From Acidobacteriota bacterium (lineage in GTDB: Bacteria; Acidobacteriota; UBA6911; RPQK01; JAJDTT01), in NCBI GenBank assembly GCA_965217775.1, contig CBDCJH010000002.1, positions 2,688,001 to 2,752,000 on the forward strand: a DNA stretch of 64,000 nucleotides. Reading direction: 5' to 3'. This document shows, one piece after another, positions 53,462 to 59,871 of the stretch. The position numbers and the translations under genes are program-made. The notes under the pieces were generated by a model that made no database searches, was not told the origin of the DNA, and saw nothing but the letters and a program-made list of their open reading frames with translations. Within the stretch, counting starts at the first letter, position 1. Every line of letters begins with the position of its first letter.

Positions 53462-53860
53462 ATGCGAAAATTCACGACTCGACTCGTCCTGAGCCTGTTC
53501 GGTAGCTGTCTGCTCCTGTTGGCCGCCGGCGCCCACGATTGGGAGGCGCCCGAAGAGGCCAAGAAGATGAAGAACCCCCACGCGGCCACCGACGAAGCCA
53601 TGACCCTGGCCAGGACGCAATACGACGAGAACTGCAAGTTCTGCCACGGTGATACCGGCGGTGCTGATGGTCCGGTGGCGGCCATGCTCAAGGAAAAGCC
53701 CCCTCCGTTCAACGAAGCCGAAGCCATGGCGAAGGTCGCCGACGGTGAACTCTTCTGGAAGATCACCAACGGCAAGGACCCCATGCCCGGCTACCAGAAG
53801 AAGCTCTCCGACGAGGAGCGGTGGCAACTGGTGAACTTCATCCGAACCTTCGCCAAGTGA
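53462..53860 (+). CDS. Monoheme cytochrome c
   Basis: Signal peptide; CKFCHG; DGELFWKI..G..PMP; W.LV.FIR. Confidence 0.9.
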   Translation: MRKFTTRLVLSLFGSCLLLLAAGAHDWEAPEEAKKMKNPHAATDEAMTLARTQYDENCKFCHGDTGGADGPVAAMLKEKPPPFNEAEAMAKVADGELFWKITNGKDPMPGYQKKLSDEERWQLVNFIRTFAK

Positions 53861-53874
53861 TCCGCTCTTCCGGC

Positions 53875-55758
53875 ATGAAGGGCCCCATCGACCGCCGTCA
53901 CTTTCTGAAGACGAGTTCCGCGTTGGCCGCCGTCTGGAGCGCTTGCGCCCCAGGCCGGCAAGTTGCGGACCCGGCCGCCCGGGAGTGGCAATCCTACGGT
54001 GGAGACGCAGGAGCGAGCCGCTACTCGCCCCTGGACCAGATCAACCGGGCCAACGTCTCCGAGCTGAAGGTGGCCTGGACCCACCGGACCGGGGATGCCC
54101 TCCAGCGACCGTCCACCACCATCGAGTGCACGCCCATCGTGGTGGACGGCCGCATGTACGTCTCCACGGCCACACTTCAGGTGCACGCGCTGGATGCGGC
54201 CACCGGTCGGAAGCTCTGGAGCTTCGATCCCCACGGCGGGAAGCCGCTGCGGGGGTCCCCCGGGGTCAACCGCGCAGTCACCTACTGGCAGAACCCCGCC
54301 CAGCCTGACGACCGCCGGATCTTCCTGCCGGTCAAGGACATGCTCTTCTCCATCGACGCGGGGACCGGGAAGCTGACGCCCGGATTCGGCCAGGACGGGG
54401 TCATCGACCTGAAACAGGACTTCGACCACGACATGACCGGACTCTCCTTCACCCTGACCAGTCCGGTGGTGGCCTACCAGGACCTGATCATCGTGGGAGG
54501 AGGCGGCGCGGAGGGACCCTACCCGGAGGCGCCGGGCCACATCCGGGGCTACGACGCCGCCACCGGAAAGCGGCGCTGGATCTTCCACACCACGCCTCGC
54601 CCTGGCCAGTTCGGAAACGACACCTGGGAAGGAGACTCGTGGAGGACCACGGGCGGGACCAACAATTGGGGCGGCATGAGCCTGGACCCGGAACGGGGCT
54701 GGGTCTTTGCCTCCATCGGCTCCCCTGCATTCGACTTCTACGGGGGCAATCGCAAGGGGGCCAACCTCTTCGGCAACTGCGTCCTGGCGCTGGACGCCTC
54801 CACCGGGGAACGGCAGTGGCACTTCCAGACCGTCCACCACGACGTCTGGGACTACGACCTTCCGTGCCAGCCGGCCCTCATCAACATGACCCAGGGCGGA
54901 CGGAACTTCGAGGCGGTGGTCCAGCCCACCAAGATGGGGATGATCTTCTTCTTCGATCGGGAGACGGGCAAACCGGTCTTCCCCGTGGAGGAACGGCCCA
55001 TGCCCGCCTCGGACGTTCCGGGCGAGGAGCTCTGGCCGACCCAACCCTTTCCCGTGAAGCCCCCTCCCCTGTGCCGGCAGGGGTTCATGCCGGACCAGAT
55101 CACCGACATCACTCCCGACGCCCACGCCTTCGTCAAGGAGATCTACGACCGCTCCCGTGTCGGGGCACTCTACACTCCGCCCAGCCTCCAGGGGACCATC
55201 ATCCACCCGGGCTTCCGCGGTGGAGCTCTCTGGGGCGGATGCAGCCACGACCCGGTGGCCAACCGGCTCTTCGTGAACACCAGCGAATGGACCAACCGGA
55301 TCACGCTGGCTCCCGCCCGGGAGGACCAACCTTTCGACTACGCCCTTCCCGAACGGGCCCTGTTGCAGGACCCGGAGAAATACCCGGCCATCAAGCCCCC
55401 GTGGGGCTACCTGACGGCCATCGATCTGGACTCGGGGGACTTCGTCTGGCGAGTGGTGGCGGGAGGGATTCCGGAGTTGGAGGCTCGCGGAATCACCGGG
55501 ACGGGGAGCCCCATGCACGGCGGAACCATCGCCACGGCCGGAGGCCTGATCTTCGTGGGAGGAAGTTTCGACAAGAAGTTCCGCGCCTACGACTCCAGCA
55601 ACGGCCAGGTGGTCTGGGAGCATCAGTTGAACGCCGGCGGCTTTGCGACCCCGTCCACTTACGAGGCGGAGGGCCGGCAATATGTGGTCATTGCCGCCGG
55701 GGGCGGCCAGGCCGCTTCCAATTCGGGCGATGAATTCGTGGCCTTCGCGCTGGCGTAA
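53875..55758 (+). CDS. PQQ-dependent dehydrogenase (glucose/quinate/shikimate family), Tat lipoprotein
   Basis: RRHFLK..SAC; W.SYGGD....RYSPLDQIN..NV, TPIVVDG, W.GMS.D, WHFQTVHHD.WDYD, PPWG, TAGGL.F. Confidence 0.9.
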   Translation: MKGPIDRRHFLKTSSALAAVWSACAPGRQVADPAAREWQSYGGDAGASRYSPLDQINRANVSELKVAWTHRTGDALQRPSTTIECTPIVVDGRMYVSTATLQVHALDAATGRKLWSFDPHGGKPLRGSPGVNRAVTYWQNPAQPDDRRIFLPVKDMLFSIDAGTGKLTPGFGQDGVIDLKQDFDHDMTGLSFTLTSPVVAYQDLIIVGGGGAEGPYPEAPGHIRGYDAATGKRRWIFHTTPRPGQFGNDTWEGDSWRTTGGTNNWGGMSLDPERGWVFASIGSPAFDFYGGNRKGANLFGNCVLALDASTGERQWHFQTVHHDVWDYDLPCQPALINMTQGGRNFEAVVQPTKMGMIFFFDRETGKPVFPVEERPMPASDVPGEELWPTQPFPVKPPPLCRQGFMPDQITDITPDAHAFVKEIYDRSRVGALYTPPSLQGTIIHPGFRGGALWGGCSHDPVANRLFVNTSEWTNRITLAPAREDQPFDYALPERALLQDPEKYPAIKPPWGYLTAIDLDSGDFVWRVVAGGIPELEARGITGTGSPMHGGTIATAGGLIFVGGSFDKKFRAYDSSNGQVVWEHQLNAGGFATPSTYEAEGRQYVVIAAGGGQAASNSGDEFVAFALA

Positions 55759-56269
55759 GCCGGGTTCCCGGGGCCGGCGCCTCGGAGCCGCCGGCCTGAT
55801 TCTGTTCCTTGGTGTCCTGACCGGGGCGGCGCGCACGGAAGACAAGGCGCCGGAGCCTCAGCCCATCCCCTTCAGCCACAAGGTCCATGTGGCCTCCGGG
55901 TTGCGGTGCGCCTTCTGCCATCCCATCGAGGAACCGGGCTTCACGGCGGGACTGCCCGCCGAGTCCAAGTGCATGGTCTGCCACACCGCCGTCAAGAGCG
56001 ACAGTCCGGACATCCTGAAGCTGGCGAAAGCCGCCAAGTCGGGCGAGACGATCCCCTGGGTGCGAATCTACCGGGTTCCGGACTACGTCTGGTTCTCCCA
56101 TGCGCTGCACGCCGTGGACGCCAAGATCGAATGCGCCGCCTGCCACGGGCCCGTCGCCACGCGGGAGGTGTTGGTTCAGGAGAAGCCGACCTCCATGGAC
56201 TTCTGCATGGAGTGCCACGCGGCCCACAAGGCCTCCAACGGCTGCGACGTGTGCCATGTTCGGCAGTAG
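55730..56269 (+). CDS. Pentaheme cytochrome c3-family protein (ActA-like)
   Basis: QPIPFSHK.H, five CxxCH motifs, IPWVRIY..PDYV.FSH..H; start uncertain. Confidence 0.85.
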   Translation: MNSWPSRWRKPGSRGRRLGAAGLILFLGVLTGAARTEDKAPEPQPIPFSHKVHVASGLRCAFCHPIEEPGFTAGLPAESKCMVCHTAVKSDSPDILKLAKAAKSGETIPWVRIYRVPDYVWFSHALHAVDAKIECAACHGPVATREVLVQEKPTSMDFCMECHAAHKASNGCDVCHVRQ

Positions 56270-56504
56270 TTGGGAGTATCCATGTTGCAAGTGGTGGGTG
56301 CTAATCGGTGTTTCCATCCCGTGTCGTTAGTGCGTGATCTGTCCGGTCCAAGAGGCACAGGGTTAGGAGGAGCGTTCTTCCGCCGGAGGTGAGGCGGAGA
56401 TCGAACTGGATCCGCCGGGCGCCGTGCAGGGGGCGATGAGTGGACCGATCAACTGGATCGAGGGGCCTGAGATCGTCGACGTCAGTCCTCCGGGAGGTCC
56501 GGAT

Positions 56505-56587
56505 ACGCCCTGGGGAGCGTCGGGTCAAGCCTCCGGCTCCTCCGCTTCGCTGCGCCCCTTCGGGTGACCCGACGCTCCCCAGGGCGT
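56505..56587. other. Perfect 23-bp-stem hairpin in the long downstream non-coding end of the IS110
   Basis: ACGCCCTGGGGAGCGTCGGGTCA (56505-56527) and its exact reverse complement (56565-56587). Confidence 0.75.
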
Positions 56588-56699
56588 GAAGAGCTTTCAT
56601 GGCCGTAAGCAAGCTTCCGGCCAGACCTGACCGGAAGTTCGACAGACGGCCATCAGGGGGTCCACACGCTCCCTTTCCTCACGGGGTCTCTCCGTGGCC

Positions 56700-57647
56700 T
56701 CAGAAGGTCGCTCGGGGCGCTACGGGCAACCAGGTGCGGTCCTGCCGGACGAGGGTGTTGGCCAGGACGATGAGCTTGCGCATGACGGCGACGAGGGCCA
56801 CCTTGCCGGGCTTGCCGCGCTCTCTCAGCCTCCGGTACACCTCGGCCAAGTCGGGGTTCCAGCGCAGGGCGGACACCGCCGGCATGTACAGGAGCCGTCG
56901 CGCCCGCGCCCGTCCGCCGCGGATGAACGCCCGGCCCTGCCAAGCCCCCGACTCGCGCGGAACGGCGGCCAACCCGGCCAGACTGGCGGCGGCCTTGCCG
57001 CTGAGGGCACCCAGCTCGGGCATCTCGGCCAGCAGACCGGCGGCGGTGGTGGCCGCGATCCCCGGGATGGAGGTGAGGATCTCCAACTTGCGGGCCCGCG
57101 CCTCGTCAGCCGCGATCAGCGTCTGCATTTTGCGGTCGATGGTGCGCACGTGACGCTCGAACATGTTGATCTGGGTCTGGTGCTGCTGTTTCAACACGGG
57201 TTCGCGGAGCTGTTGGCGGCGGTTGAGCGTGGCCGTGCGCTGGCGCATCAGCCCGTCCCGGACCATCTGCAGTTCCTGGAGCCGGCGTTGCGTTTTCGAC
57301 GGCGCCGGGGTCCGGCGCGGATCCAGGCTGGCGGCCAACTGGGCCAGTTTCCGAGCGTCTACGGCGTCGGTCTTGGCACGGCTCCCGGTCGCCTCGGCGA
57401 AGCGCCGCGCCTGCCAGGGGTTCACCTTCGCCAGCGGCAGCTTCGCTTTGGACAGCGCTTCCTCGAGGTCCCGGTGGTAGGGGCCGGTGGCCTCGTAGAC
57501 GACGCACTCGACCGGAGTTCCGATCCAATCGATCAGCGCCCGGAAGCCGGCCGGGTCATTGTCGAACTGGGCGGAATGGCCGTCGGCCAGCCGGTGCGCG
57601 TCCAGGTGCGCTTTCGAGATGTCGATGCCTACGGTATGCTGTTTCAT
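56700..57647 (-). CDS. IS110 family recombinase/transposase (DEDD RuvC-like plus Tnp20)
   Basis: GIDISK, VYEATG, KVNP..ARRFA, AKTDAVDA, SIPGI, GLA...RESG (catalytic Ser), GGR...R..LYM.A, A.MRKL. Confidence 0.96.
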   Translation of the reverse strand: MKQHTVGIDISKAHLDAHRLADGHSAQFDNDPAGFRALIDWIGTPVECVVYEATGPYHRDLEEALSKAKLPLAKVNPWQARRFAEATGSRAKTDAVDARKLAQLAASLDPRRTPAPSKTQRRLQELQMVRDGLMRQRTATLNRRQQLREPVLKQQHQTQINMFERHVRTIDRKMQTLIAADEARARKLEILTSIPGIAATTAAGLLAEMPELGALSGKAAASLAGLAAVPRESGAWQGRAFIRGGRARARRLLYMPAVSALRWNPDLAEVYRRLRERGKPGKVALVAVMRKLIVLANTLVRQDRTWLPVAPRATF

Positions 57648-57654
57648 CTTTCCT

Positions 57655-57811
57655 GTCTCCTGTGCTTGTCATTCGGGCCATGATGCCCTTGTATCCATTC
57701 AGGACATCGGGAAAGACGGTGGCCGACCTCACTCCACATCCGGATCTGACGGTCAGCGGCGACACGGTCCAGCCACCGCCGTCCGGGTCGCTCATGAGCG
57801 ACCCGGACGGC
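57655..57811 (-). ncRNA. Predicted IS110 bridge RNA (5' stem-loop, target-binding loop, donor-binding loop)
   Basis: 34-bp palindrome 57778-57811; LTG GTCGCCGCT (57755-57763); RTG GGAG (57732-57735); LDG ATGGATAC (57691-57698); RDG GACAAG (57665-57670); each matches the observed target or donor junction. Confidence 0.82.
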
Positions 57812-57829
57812 CCTATTTAAACAGACAAG

Positions 57830-57978
57830 CGGCGACTTTCTTGTCGCCGAACAGGGGGGCAGGGGGGACGGAGTCCCCACTCTACACATTCCGGCCACGG
57901 AATTGCATAGCAGTAAAAGAAGAGCAGGCGACAAGAAAGTCGCCTGTCCCAATGGGCGGCAAGAAAACCGCCCGTCCC
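57830..57978. repeat. REP/REPIN-like cluster (first REP split by the IS110)
   Basis: CGGCGACTTTCTTGTCGCCGA ... CAGGCGACAAGAAAGTCGCCTG, GGGCGGCAAGAAAACCGCCC. Confidence 0.8.
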
Positions 57979-58023
57979 AAGGTCACTGACAACACCTCTC
58001 TCAGGTGGCATCATATGGTCCTC

Positions 58024-59871
58024 ATGAAATCCGGTATAAGACCAACATACGCCCTTTTCCTGCTCCCGCTCTTGCTGGCCGCGGCCTGCGTCCCGGCGCC
58101 CGATCCGTCCGACGACAACGACTGGCGCTACTACGGCAAGGACCCGGGCGGGACCAGGTACTCCGCTCTGGCTCAGATCAACCGGACCAACGTCCAGGAA
58201 CTGGAGGTGGCCTGGATCTACCGCATGGGCGAGGTGAAGCGCCCGCACCGGACCATCCCCGACCGGATGCAGGCTCCGTGGGAATGCACGCCTCTGGCAG
58301 TGGATGGAGTCCTCTACCTGTCCACGCCTTCCAACCGGGTCATCGCCCTGGAGGCGGAGACGGGCCGGGAGCTCTGGGAGTTCGACCCGCAGGAAGGCAG
58401 CGGCGACGACCGCTTCTACCTCCAGCATCGGGGCGTCTCGTTCTGGGAGGGAACCGTCGACGGGCAACTTCAGCGGCGGATCCTGATGGGGACGGGAGAC
58501 GCCAAGCTGTTCGCGCTGGATGCGGAGACGGGGCAGTTGATCCCCGGGTTCGGCGAGGACGGATGGGTGGATCTGGACGGGGGCATGACCACGCGCTGGC
58601 CCAAGAGCATCTATACGGTCACCTCTCCGGTGGCCGTCTACAAGAACGTGGTGGTCACGGGCTCGCGGCTCAGCTCCGGCCAGGAGAACCAAGGACCCAG
58701 CGGCAAGGTCCGGGCCTGGGACGTGCTCACGGGCGATCTGGTCTGGGAGTTCCACACCGTTCCCCGACCCGGAGAAGCGGGAAACGAGACCTGGGGGGGA
58801 GACTCCTGGAAGGACCGTTCCGGCGCCAACGCCTGGTCCATCATCAGCGTGGACACGGAGCGGGGCTGGGTCTTCGTCCCCACGGCCTCCCCCCTGGGAG
58901 GCGACCGTGACGGTCAGAACCTGTACGGAAACTCCCTGGTCGTGCTGGACGCCCACACCGGAAAACTCATCTGGTACTACCAGGCCGTCCGCCATGACAC
59001 GTGGGACTACGATCTCCCGGCCCAGCCGGTGCTGGTGACCCTGGAACAGGACGGTCACGTGGTCCCGGCGGTGGCTCAGCCCACCAAGATGGGGATGGTC
59101 TTCGTGCTGGATCGGCTGACCGGCAAGCCCCTGCTCCCGGTGGAGGAGCGCCCGGTGCCCCAGACCGGGGGCGGATACAACTGGCCCACCCAGCCCATTA
59201 CCGTCAAACCGCCGCCGCTGGTTCGGCACAACCTGACCCGGGAGGAGGTGAGCCGGGTCACGCCCGAGTCCTACGAATTCTGTCTGGAGCTCTTCGACTC
59301 GCTCCACTACGAGGGCATCTACACGCCTCGGCAGGAGGGGCCGACCCTCATGCTGCCCGGTTCCCTGGGGGGAGCCAACTGGTCCGGATCCTCCTTCGAT
59401 CCCACGACCGGGATCCTCTACGTGAACGTCACCGAGCTGGGGAACGCCCGCGGCGCGGGCCGCCGATTCTGGCAGGACAACAAATGGCCCTGTCAGGAGC
59501 CCCCGTGGGGGACGCTCAACGCAGTGGACCTGAACCGGGGCGAGATCGTCTGGAAGAGCACCCTCGGCGTGGTGGACGAGCTGATGGAGAAGGGCGTCCC
59601 GCAGACGGGGACCCCGAACCTGGGTGGATCGATCGTCACCGCCGGCGGGCTGGTCTTCATCGGAGGCACCAACGACCAGCGGTTCAGGGCATTCGACTCG
59701 GCCTCCGGCGAGGAGCTCTGGGTGGACCTGCTGGAGGCCAACGCGCACGCCACCCCCATGACCTTCTGGGAAGAGAAGAGCGGCAAGCAGTACGTGGTGA
59801 TCGCCGCGGGGGGAGGCAACGTGTTCAGTGACATCACATCCGACGGGCTGGTGGCCTACGCGTTGCCGTGA
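58024..59871 (+). CDS. PQQ-dependent dehydrogenase lipoprotein (paralog of 53875-55758)
   Basis: Lipobox AAAC; W.YYG.D.GGTRYS.L.QIN, ECTPL.VDG, W.YQ.V.HD.WDYD.PAQP, PPWG, GTPNLGG..VTAGGL.F. Confidence 0.9.
   Translation: MKSGIRPTYALFLLPLLLAAACVPAPDPSDDNDWRYYGKDPGGTRYSALAQINRTNVQELEVAWIYRMGEVKRPHRTIPDRMQAPWECTPLAVDGVLYLSTPSNRVIALEAETGRELWEFDPQEGSGDDRFYLQHRGVSFWEGTVDGQLQRRILMGTGDAKLFALDAETGQLIPGFGEDGWVDLDGGMTTRWPKSIYTVTSPVAVYKNVVVTGSRLSSGQENQGPSGKVRAWDVLTGDLVWEFHTVPRPGEAGNETWGGDSWKDRSGANAWSIISVDTERGWVFVPTASPLGGDRDGQNLYGNSLVVLDAHTGKLIWYYQAVRHDTWDYDLPAQPVLVTLEQDGHVVPAVAQPTKMGMVFVLDRLTGKPLLPVEERPVPQTGGGYNWPTQPITVKPPPLVRHNLTREEVSRVTPESYEFCLELFDSLHYEGIYTPRQEGPTLMLPGSLGGANWSGSSFDPTTGILYVNVTELGNARGAGRRFWQDNKWPCQEPPWGTLNAVDLNRGEIVWKSTLGVVDELMEKGVPQTGTPNLGGSIVTAGGLVFIGGTNDQRFRAFDSASGEELWVDLLEANAHATPMTFWEEKSGKQYVVIAAGGGNVFSDITSDGLVAYALP

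Follow-up and report, generated by a model that had tools for sequence, protein, structure and literature searches.

Evidence for an intact IS110-family element with a bridge RNA of the IS621 type behind a repeated extragenic palindrome in an Acidobacteriota genome

Towards the end of a 64,000-nucleotide stretch of an Acidobacteriota genome (assembly GCA_965217775.1, contig CBDCJH010000002.1, positions 2,688,001 to 2,752,000; the whole stretch is called the window here), the minus strand carries an insertion sequence of the IS110 family at positions 56275-57829. It consists of a structured left end, a recombinase gene and a long right end, and it lies just 3' of a hairpin of the repeated extragenic palindrome (REP) type. 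We are highly confident that it is an intact element of the IS110 subgroup with a bridge-RNA system of the IS621 type. Our analysis established its anatomy and exact ends, an empty site, intact catalytic residues, a conserved RNA fold and the covariation of guides with DNA. The source assembly comprises 6.43 Mb in 2 contigs and is rated 97.88% complete. Coordinates are collected in Table 1; position 1 of the element is window position 57829, and the CT core leaves the cut position ambiguous by 2 nt.

The gene product has the two domains of the family. Pfam matches the N-terminal RuvC-like DEDD domain (PF01548, E 4.8e-23, residues 6-146) and the C-terminal Tnp domain with its Ser-Gly pair (PF02371, E 1.4e-18, residues 189-272), and the NCBIfam model NF033542 ('IS110 family RNA-guided transposase'; cut-off 140 bits) is matched at 206.5 bits. 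The best relative of solved structure is ISCro4 (PDB 9t56, E 6.6e-35), aligned over residues 3-299, the same residues that align with IS621 (PDB 8wt6, phmmer E 4.5e-31). In the latter alignment D9, E52, D94, D97 and S233-G234 stand opposite D11, E60, D102, D105 and S241-G242 of IS621, and D11, E60, D102, D105 and S241 make up the composite active site described in the structural paper (PMC11208158). An earlier, sequence-only reading of this DNA had called the frame intact, with a DEDD motif and a serine, and the open 315-residue frame bears this out; its further description as compact does not set the protein apart, as the PDB chains of IS621 and ISCro4 have 328 and 341 residues.

Read on the minus strand, the element starts with CT-TGTCTGTTTAAAT and ends in ATGGATA-CT. 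It shows no terminal inverted repeats, the longest inverted word shared by the first and the last 80 nt being an internal 8-mer. Four copies (A, the window copy, to D) are present in the genome at 96-100% identity, in four different flanks, with the same end bases and bounded by CT. The 315-residue frame is open in all of them, with B, C and D differing from A at 3-5 residues; A and B differ at 5/930 bases of the open reading frame and have identical left ends. The right ends of copies C and D are each longer by 1848 bp, a segment that lies about 36 nt short of the right terminus and shows inverted ends and a 9-bp duplication. NCBIfam assigned both of its overlapping frames to the ISKra4 family (profile positions 17-249 and 241-421); a Pfam search gave no family for the first frame. 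The ISKra4 insertion has an identical site and 9-bp duplication in C and D, so it was the outer IS110 ends that moved the 3.41-kb composite. Whole elements among the relatives measure 1179-1557 bp. The unpublished genome G016 underlies no claim made here.

The empty site, for which the sequence-only reading had proposed a PCR, was found in silico in G006, a same-genus genome (locus L090), in which both flanks meet at one CT: GTTGGG, where the cytochrome gene ends, is followed by a single AG (CT on the minus strand), the REP and then more than 130 nt that match the other flank of the window. A contig of the public run X18 also joins 56274 to 57828, skipping 1553 positions, but with 29 letters on one side and a depth of 4.7 it falls under the bar set for bridging records and was not counted, so the empty site rests on G006.

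The left end folds into a conserved RNA structure. We aligned 13 left ends, namely those of copies A and C, seven taken from further assemblies of Acidobacteriota, three belonging to Candidatus Foliamicus and one member of a second IS110 family in the same genome; a first alignment had misaligned the alphaproteobacterial left ends, so that two rows were dropped and anchored patterns served to read those guides. In the consensus fold, a 5' stem-loop precedes a pair of stems, each with a large internal loop, a layout that matches the description of IS621. Over 41 pairs in 6 helices, 96.8% of the cells pair, compared with 90.8% in shuffles, and compensatory changes on both sides occur at 13/41 pairs as against 7.1. 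On four of five measures none of 500 shuffles reached the observed value; the count of further pair types was not distinctive (195/500). Since the aligned sequences are kin, the shuffle control overstates the case; a control that slid the partners by 1-3 columns is unaffected by kinship and gave only 31.6-53.8% pairing. Two RNAalifold pairs between the target guides (columns 61-87 and 63-86), with no both-side change, were removed before counting. The stems thus carry compensatory changes and the loops are unpaired, and the covariation analysis that had been suggested for homologous left ends comes out in favour of the fold. The 34-nt perfect hairpin and the stem GGTGGC..GACC/GGTC.GCCACC, both noticed in the sequence-only reading, were located at the 5' stem-loop and as the outer stems of the target module (GGTGGCTGGACC with GGTCGGCCACC).

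Folded alone, positions 57648-57813 reach -84.8 kcal/mol (z = -4.95), a stability that none of 200 shuffles equals. Rfam 15 holds no family near its gathering threshold for this DNA, the only left-end match being ilvB-OMG at 10.7 bits against 95.9 (E 4.8). With a start after TTAAAT and an end at the start codon, the bridge RNA would be about 160 nt long. The basal helices of the donor module extend as far as the start codon, over the ribosome-binding stretch GGAG/GGAAAG. Judged from the predicted fold, the basal helix, which links 57711-57718 to the start-codon region, pairs with that stretch and with the A of the start codon, and folding of the RNA could gate translation of the recombinase; the helix shows compensatory changes in Foliamicus.

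The loops of this RNA contain words that can be read against DNA. In the target loop, GTCGCCGCT equals the left flank GTCGCCG plus CT at 9/9 positions in the window copy, just as had been claimed. The companion claim, that GTGGAG is complementary to the core plus CC with the next two bases mismatched, also holds: GGAG pairs with CT-CC, and GU, the two bases 5' of it, does not pair with the flank of the window copy (CCCAAC). An extended right-target pairing was considered for this copy and rejected, as loop and flank disagree beyond CT-CC. When the 180-nt left end was subjected to 200,000 mononucleotide shuffles, the 9-mer appeared in 224, the 8-mer in 348 and the 6-mer in 9,566, and all three together in 0.

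The left target guide varies along with its DNA. Copies A and B both read GTCGCCGCT and lie behind GTCGCCG and GCCGCCG, respectively, the flank of B corresponding to a U-G wobble on the bottom strand; copies C and D carry ACCGCCGCG instead and are found behind ACCGCCG, in the matching REP subfamily. REP families of this genome end in the words GTCGCCG, ACCGCCG and GCCGCCG, with 60, 152 and 84 candidate 11-mers carrying GTC, ACC and GCC, respectively. Further left-target codes in relatives are ACCGACG, CACGCCG, GACGCCG, GCCCTCG and GTCCTCG. Among 30 Acidobacteriota and Foliamicus copies the left flank matches at 7/7 positions in 26, at 6/7 in three and at 5/7 in one, and five of the seven distinct guide variants match all their copies perfectly. 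Over nine variant groups, which include alphaproteobacterial and second-family elements, 58/63 positions match, compared with a random-pairing mean of 32.8, and 1 of 100,000 permutations reaches 58. An alphaproteobacterial relative (41-44% identical) has the left guide TTCGTGTCT behind TTCGTGT, with 7/7 at 27/33 flanks, and in 30/31 copies the right target guide, CGTGAG, shows full complementarity to CT-CACG. As the CC target is invariant among close relatives, covariation of the right target guide comes only through this relative. Three copies in a related genome read GCAG at this guide.

In the donor loop, the words that had been matched to the circle junction ATGGATA-CT-TGTC are present and agree with both ends, namely ATGGATAC with the right end ATGGATA-C, and GACAAG. 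The order of left target, right target, left donor and right donor guides, proposed earlier, is the same as in IS621. Over 34 loci the right donor guide and the left end covary in three forms: GACA/TGTC at 27, TACA/TGTA at 6 and GATA/TATC at 1. The IS621 studies (PMC11208160; PMC11208158) describe an 8-nt left donor guide that reads the joined ends together with the right donor guide, and a handshake rule in which each right guide is followed by a base that pairs with the other DNA at its position 7. In our elements the U after GGAG faces donor A7 in 33/33 loci and the C after GACAAG faces target G7 in 34/34, with A opposite T7 in the alphaproteobacterial element. The rule fits at the first base only; the second handshake base does not fit.

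Table 1. Positions of the element, its parts and its genomic copies (window coordinates unless a contig is named)
Feature	Position	Strand	Remarks
Whole IS110-family element	56275..57829	-	1555 bp including one CT per end; ends common to 4 genome copies
Left CT core	57828..57829	-	From sequence, copies and empty site
Right CT core	56275..56276	-	From sequence, copies and empty site; right target CC adjoins at 56273-56274
REP hairpin CGGCGAC-AAGAAA-GTCGCCG	57830..57849	-	Last 7 nt (57830-57836) are the left target GTCGCCG
-10-like hexamer TTAAAT	57815..57820	-	Part of proposed circle-junction promoter; putative function
5' stem-loop of bridge RNA	57778..57811	-	34-nt perfect palindrome; helices 1-2, 7/14 pairs changed on both sides
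Target-binding loop module	57718..57777	-	Helix 3, 11 pairs, 100% paired, 2 changed on both sides
Outer stems of target module	57766-57777 with 57718-57728	-	GGTGGCTGGACC with GGTCGGCCACC
Left target guide GUCGCCGCU	57755..57763	-	Identical to top strand of left target plus core
Right target guide GGAG	57732..57735	-	Complementary to CT-CC; handshake position UG at 57730-57731
Linker and donor-binding loop module	57648..57717	-	Helices 4-6, 16 pairs, 4 changed on both sides
Left donor guide AUGGAUAC	57691..57698	-	Identical to right end ATGGATA plus C of core
Right donor guide GACAAG	57665..57670	-	Complementary to CT-TGTC; handshake position CA at 57663-57664
Recombinase gene	56700..57647	-	315 aa; D9, E52, D94, D97, S233-G234
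Right end	56275..56699	-	425 nt; last 9 nt are ATGGATA-CT (left donor plus core)
Palindromic segment in right end	56508..56585	-	76-78 nt; indel polymorphism, outside conserved core
-35-like hexamer TTGCAA	56285..56290	-	17 nt from TTAAAT after joining; putative function
Copy A	56275..57829	-	Window copy
Copy B	C2:1161101-1162728		Genome copy
Copy C (L003)	C2:2676737-2680218		Carries nested ISKra4
Copy D (L004)	C2:4662145-4665576		Carries nested ISKra4

Further features were noticed in this genome and in relatives. Tandem REP arrays of the ACCGCCGCT type, with periods of 52 and 104 bp, occur at C2:940414-940674 and C2:4661521-4662146, and copy D is located at the end of the second. Two solo left-end remnants lie behind REP copies at C2:5910962 (minus strand) and C2:5614952 (plus strand); one retains about 75 nt, through the left target guide, and the other about 16 nt. 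The second IS110 family of the genome (L005-L008, at C2 ~3134896-3136413 and three other places) has four identical copies encoding a 317-residue protein. Its gene is 66% identical at the nucleotide level, and its termini and donor guides are the same as those of the window element. In this second family the left end measures about 500 nt, the match of the right target guide covers 7 nt (CT-CCCTC), the left guide agrees at only 6/9 positions of left target plus core, and all four copies lie in the same longer repeat. In one alphaproteobacterial genome, two contigs hold about 40 copies of a 1.2-kb relative (L046-L086) with the same hairpin-like repeat upstream, a very large expansion for an IS110 element. 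At locus L034 of a related assembly, an insertion of about 1.1 kb directly after the left target guide breaks the bridge RNA. The palindromic segment of the right end lacks a counterpart in the related loci L021 and L030 and is skipped by one X18 contig; it may be a small hairpin repeat in its own right. Rfam matches of the microRNA type at 56503-56592, on both strands, were set aside as chance hits that reflect this palindrome. Outside the element, the stop codon of a plus-strand open reading frame (55643-56269) lies 5 nt away; the predicted product has five CxxCH motifs and resembles a multihaem cytochrome c. The element lies between two long plus-strand frames (53821-55758 and ~58010-59871) whose translations appear to resemble each other.

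Joining the two ends creates TTGCAA-N17-TTAAAT, which ends 2-3 nt ahead of the 5' stem-loop and exists only in the joined form; under the same loose scan rule, the integrated left boundary gives no promoter match. Both hexamers keep their position in acidobacterial and Foliamicus elements, and in Candidatus Foliamicus the -35 element is a perfect TTGACA. Junction promoters are the rule in the IS110 family (PMC11208160; PMC11208158), and by this precedent a circle-junction promoter is likely here. The promoter put forward in the sequence-only reading therefore stands as far as the array forms on joining, and is weakened in its match to consensus, as detailed below. At the integrated element, the REP hairpin with CTTGTCTGTT after it was flagged as terminator-like, one of 2 such sites where 1.1 are expected, and we regard a terminator made of the hairpin and the T-rich left terminus as only a hint. 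Parts of the window occur in 20 public runs from nine studies, some of them labelled sponge metagenome; window parts without cover there give no evidence either way. Contigs from three RNA libraries (two studies) and from one other run span the gene and the left end to about 57729-57735 and then break. The contigs of runs X1 and X2 break inside the target loop (57730-57763), where their loose ends give further variants of the loop; one of these shows complementarity to 11 nt of a common spacer behind REP copies in the source genome. The 3' half of the loop is complementary to up to 11 nt of the post-REP spacer in several variants, and one may speculate that this would make a long right target guide.

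By analogy with the IS110 family, from which transcription, circle formation and RNA-guided catalysis are taken over here, the element is probably active and works much as IS621 does. The recombinase and the left-end RNA of about 160 nt would excise the element as a circle with the junction ATGGATA-CT-TGTC. This circle is possibly single-stranded and formed in a copy-out mode, according to an account of the IS621 system. Its junction would place the -35-like hexamer of the right end beside the -10-like hexamer of the left end and so raise transcription of both RNA and recombinase. The RNA would fold into the 5' stem-loop and two internal loops, the second of which would read the element's own junction by AUGGAUAC and GACAAG, with two recombinase dimers sitting on the two loops. 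The serine is expected to cut the top strand after CT, followed by strand exchange, with help from the handshake bases, and resolution. The composite DEDD/Ser site would then, by recombination at the CT core, insert the element just 3' of a REP hairpin.

Several observations weigh against the bridge-RNA reading or parts of it. The right target guide of the window copy is only 4 nt long, and its support among close relatives is concordance rather than covariation; the same is true of the left donor guide, since neither this guide nor its DNA varies in any relative. Because the relatives are kin and a single genome supplies many of the copies, the counts of copies overstate their independence. 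The junction hexamers match the consensus at 4/6 and 4/6 positions (8/12), with T in place of A at position 2 of the -10 element; the array fails a stricter scan rule, and 279 of 2000 shuffles of the 120-nt junction do as well. The RNA-library data are contigs that may hold DNA, and no RNA start, end or level can be read from them. The joined-end circle word occurs 0 times in the genome, and the contigs of four public runs show no back-joint. Finally, contamination of the assembly is rated at 7.47%.

These points bear most directly on the junction promoter. It is rather unlikely, though an account to be taken seriously, that the element is a true bridge-RNA element whose hexamers are there by chance and whose RNA arises by read-through or from an internal promoter of the left end. 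The poor consensus match fits this account, as does a published statement that the IS621 bridge RNA is weakly expressed from integrated loci too. Three relatives (L035, L036 and L087) carry about 650 nt between the left terminus and the 5' stem-loop and so cannot use a junction promoter at the usual spacing, which the left end of the second family, at about 500 nt, would not allow either. On the other side stand the positional conservation of the hexamers, the perfect TTGACA of Foliamicus, the lack of a match at the integrated boundary and the rule in the family, and read-through in particular would have to pass the terminator-like REP hairpin and T-rich terminus. The extra stretch of L035, L036 and L087 also includes a second, diverged donor-loop-like module (ATGGAGAC ... 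GACCAG).

That the window copy is a silent relic of a real family, no longer mobile, seems quite improbable to us. A relic would fit the absence of circle and back-joint, and also the divergence of a 3' patch of the gene (56625-56721), by which the last three residues are altered; the open frame with all catalytic residues, the near identity to copy B, the 9/9 match of the guide to its own flank and the same-genus genome without the insertion at this site argue against it. One might also hold that the guide-like words are no guides at all, the left end being a leader or protein-binding site and the insertion sites being found by protein-DNA contacts. This we consider extremely unlikely, as left target, right donor and right target guides and a handshake base vary with the DNA across lineages, no shuffle holds all three words, and the stems compensate around unpaired loops. 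The IS1111 subgroup has a seekRNA downstream of the gene and subterminal inverted repeats, and a guide RNA of this kind might be sought in the right end, which is long and contains a large hairpin. The hairpin, however, is an indel missing from L021 and L030, Foliamicus right ends measure only about 80-200 nt (from whole elements of 1281 and 1179 bp), and besides its own terminus the right end offers target matches of at most 7 nt and donor matches of at most 6 nt, none in a guide arrangement. Subterminal inverted repeats are lacking and all four guides lie in the left end, so a right-end RNA hardly comes into question, and a bridge RNA in the left end is the reading we retain.

The window element can thus be set beside known systems. 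IS621 of E. coli, with a bridge RNA of 177 nt (Durrant et al. 2024, PMC11208160; Hiraizumi et al. 2024, PMC11208158), has the same two domains and catalytic residues. According to these papers, IS621 also shares the CT core and the left-end RNA with its 5' stem-loop, target loop and donor loop. Further likenesses lie in the guides: the left target guide has 9 nt and is identical to the top strand, the right target guide has 4 nt, the left donor guide has 8 nt and ends at the first base of the core, and each right guide is followed by a handshake base. The IS621 work cites covariation across 5,511 target pairs and 2,201 donor pairs (PMC11208160; PMC11208158). The window protein, however, is only a distant relative of that of IS621, and the target GTCGCCG-CT-CC and the donor ATGGATA-CT-TGTC are its own. 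Its RNA would be somewhat shorter, its right donor guide pairs contiguously over 6 nt where that of IS621 is discontiguous, its right end is much longer, and its host belongs to the Acidobacteriota. Insertion into REP sequences is presumably a further likeness to IS621. With ISCro4 the comparison is by protein alone. The IS1111 subgroup belongs to the same protein family, but the window element has neither its downstream arrangement of the guide RNA nor its subterminal inverted repeats; it is not an IS1111-type element, and every testable defining feature of the IS621 type is present.

ISPpu9 and ISPpu10 of Pseudomonas putida (PMC12288879; preprint bioRxiv 10.64898/2026.03.19.712850) are IS110 elements that insert into repeated extragenic palindromes as the window element does, into REP families and with guides that are unrelated in sequence to those described here. 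For ISPpu10 the preprint reports that a stem-loop 5' of the target is a second layer of specificity. The left target of the window element is likewise the 3' arm of a REP hairpin. Cargo-bearing expanded IS110 elements have been described (bioRxiv 10.64898/2026.08.14.744561), and copies C and D resemble them in that 3.41 kb moved together with the right-end ISKra4; their cargo, however, is only another insertion sequence with its transposase split over two frames. A literature search on IS110 with Acidobacteriota, sponge and bridge RNA returned only an unrelated review, and it was not made by element name.

The distribution of differences among the copies draws attention to the target loop. The left ends of A and B differ from those of C and D at 15 positions, and 13 of these lie within element positions 67-94, the target loop. 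Between A and C, the gene agrees at 920/930 positions (98.9%) and the rest of the left end at 145/147, as against 26/35 in the loop core. Between A and the related locus L031, the gene agrees at 830/930 positions (89%) and the loop core at 33/35. The patch at 56625-56721, which spans the last codons and downstream sequence, shows about 25 differences between copy A and copies B, C and D; in copy A it is identical to L021/L022 of another assembly, and B, C and D match a different lineage. These mosaic loop identities and the patch indicate that the lineages recombine and that the loop travels as a module. It is possible, and we suggest it tentatively from these comparisons, that the target loop may act as an exchangeable cassette swapped among near-identical copies.

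To conclude, the window element is a very clean but ordinary new example of the RNA-guided recombinases described in 2024, and it leaves knowledge of how bridge systems work unchanged. What lifts it above routine is the natural panel of codes on one scaffold, together with the possibly modular behaviour of the loop. Programmable tools that insert, invert and excise DNA are being sought among the bridge recombinases, and the element provides an orthologue from a little-studied phylum with directly readable target and donor codes. On a scaffold that is nearly the same throughout, its relatives offer at least seven codes for the left target and three for the right donor, a natural reprogramming series, and the two target codes within one genome, each in its matching REP subfamily, make a ready-made specificity panel. 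For genome biology, the element exemplifies how an insertion sequence divides up the REP families of a single genome, and it can take another element with it. If the loop swap reflects recombination at the invariant flanking stems, co-resident IS110 lineages would trade address labels, and swapped loops would let them hop between the REP subfamilies of one genome.

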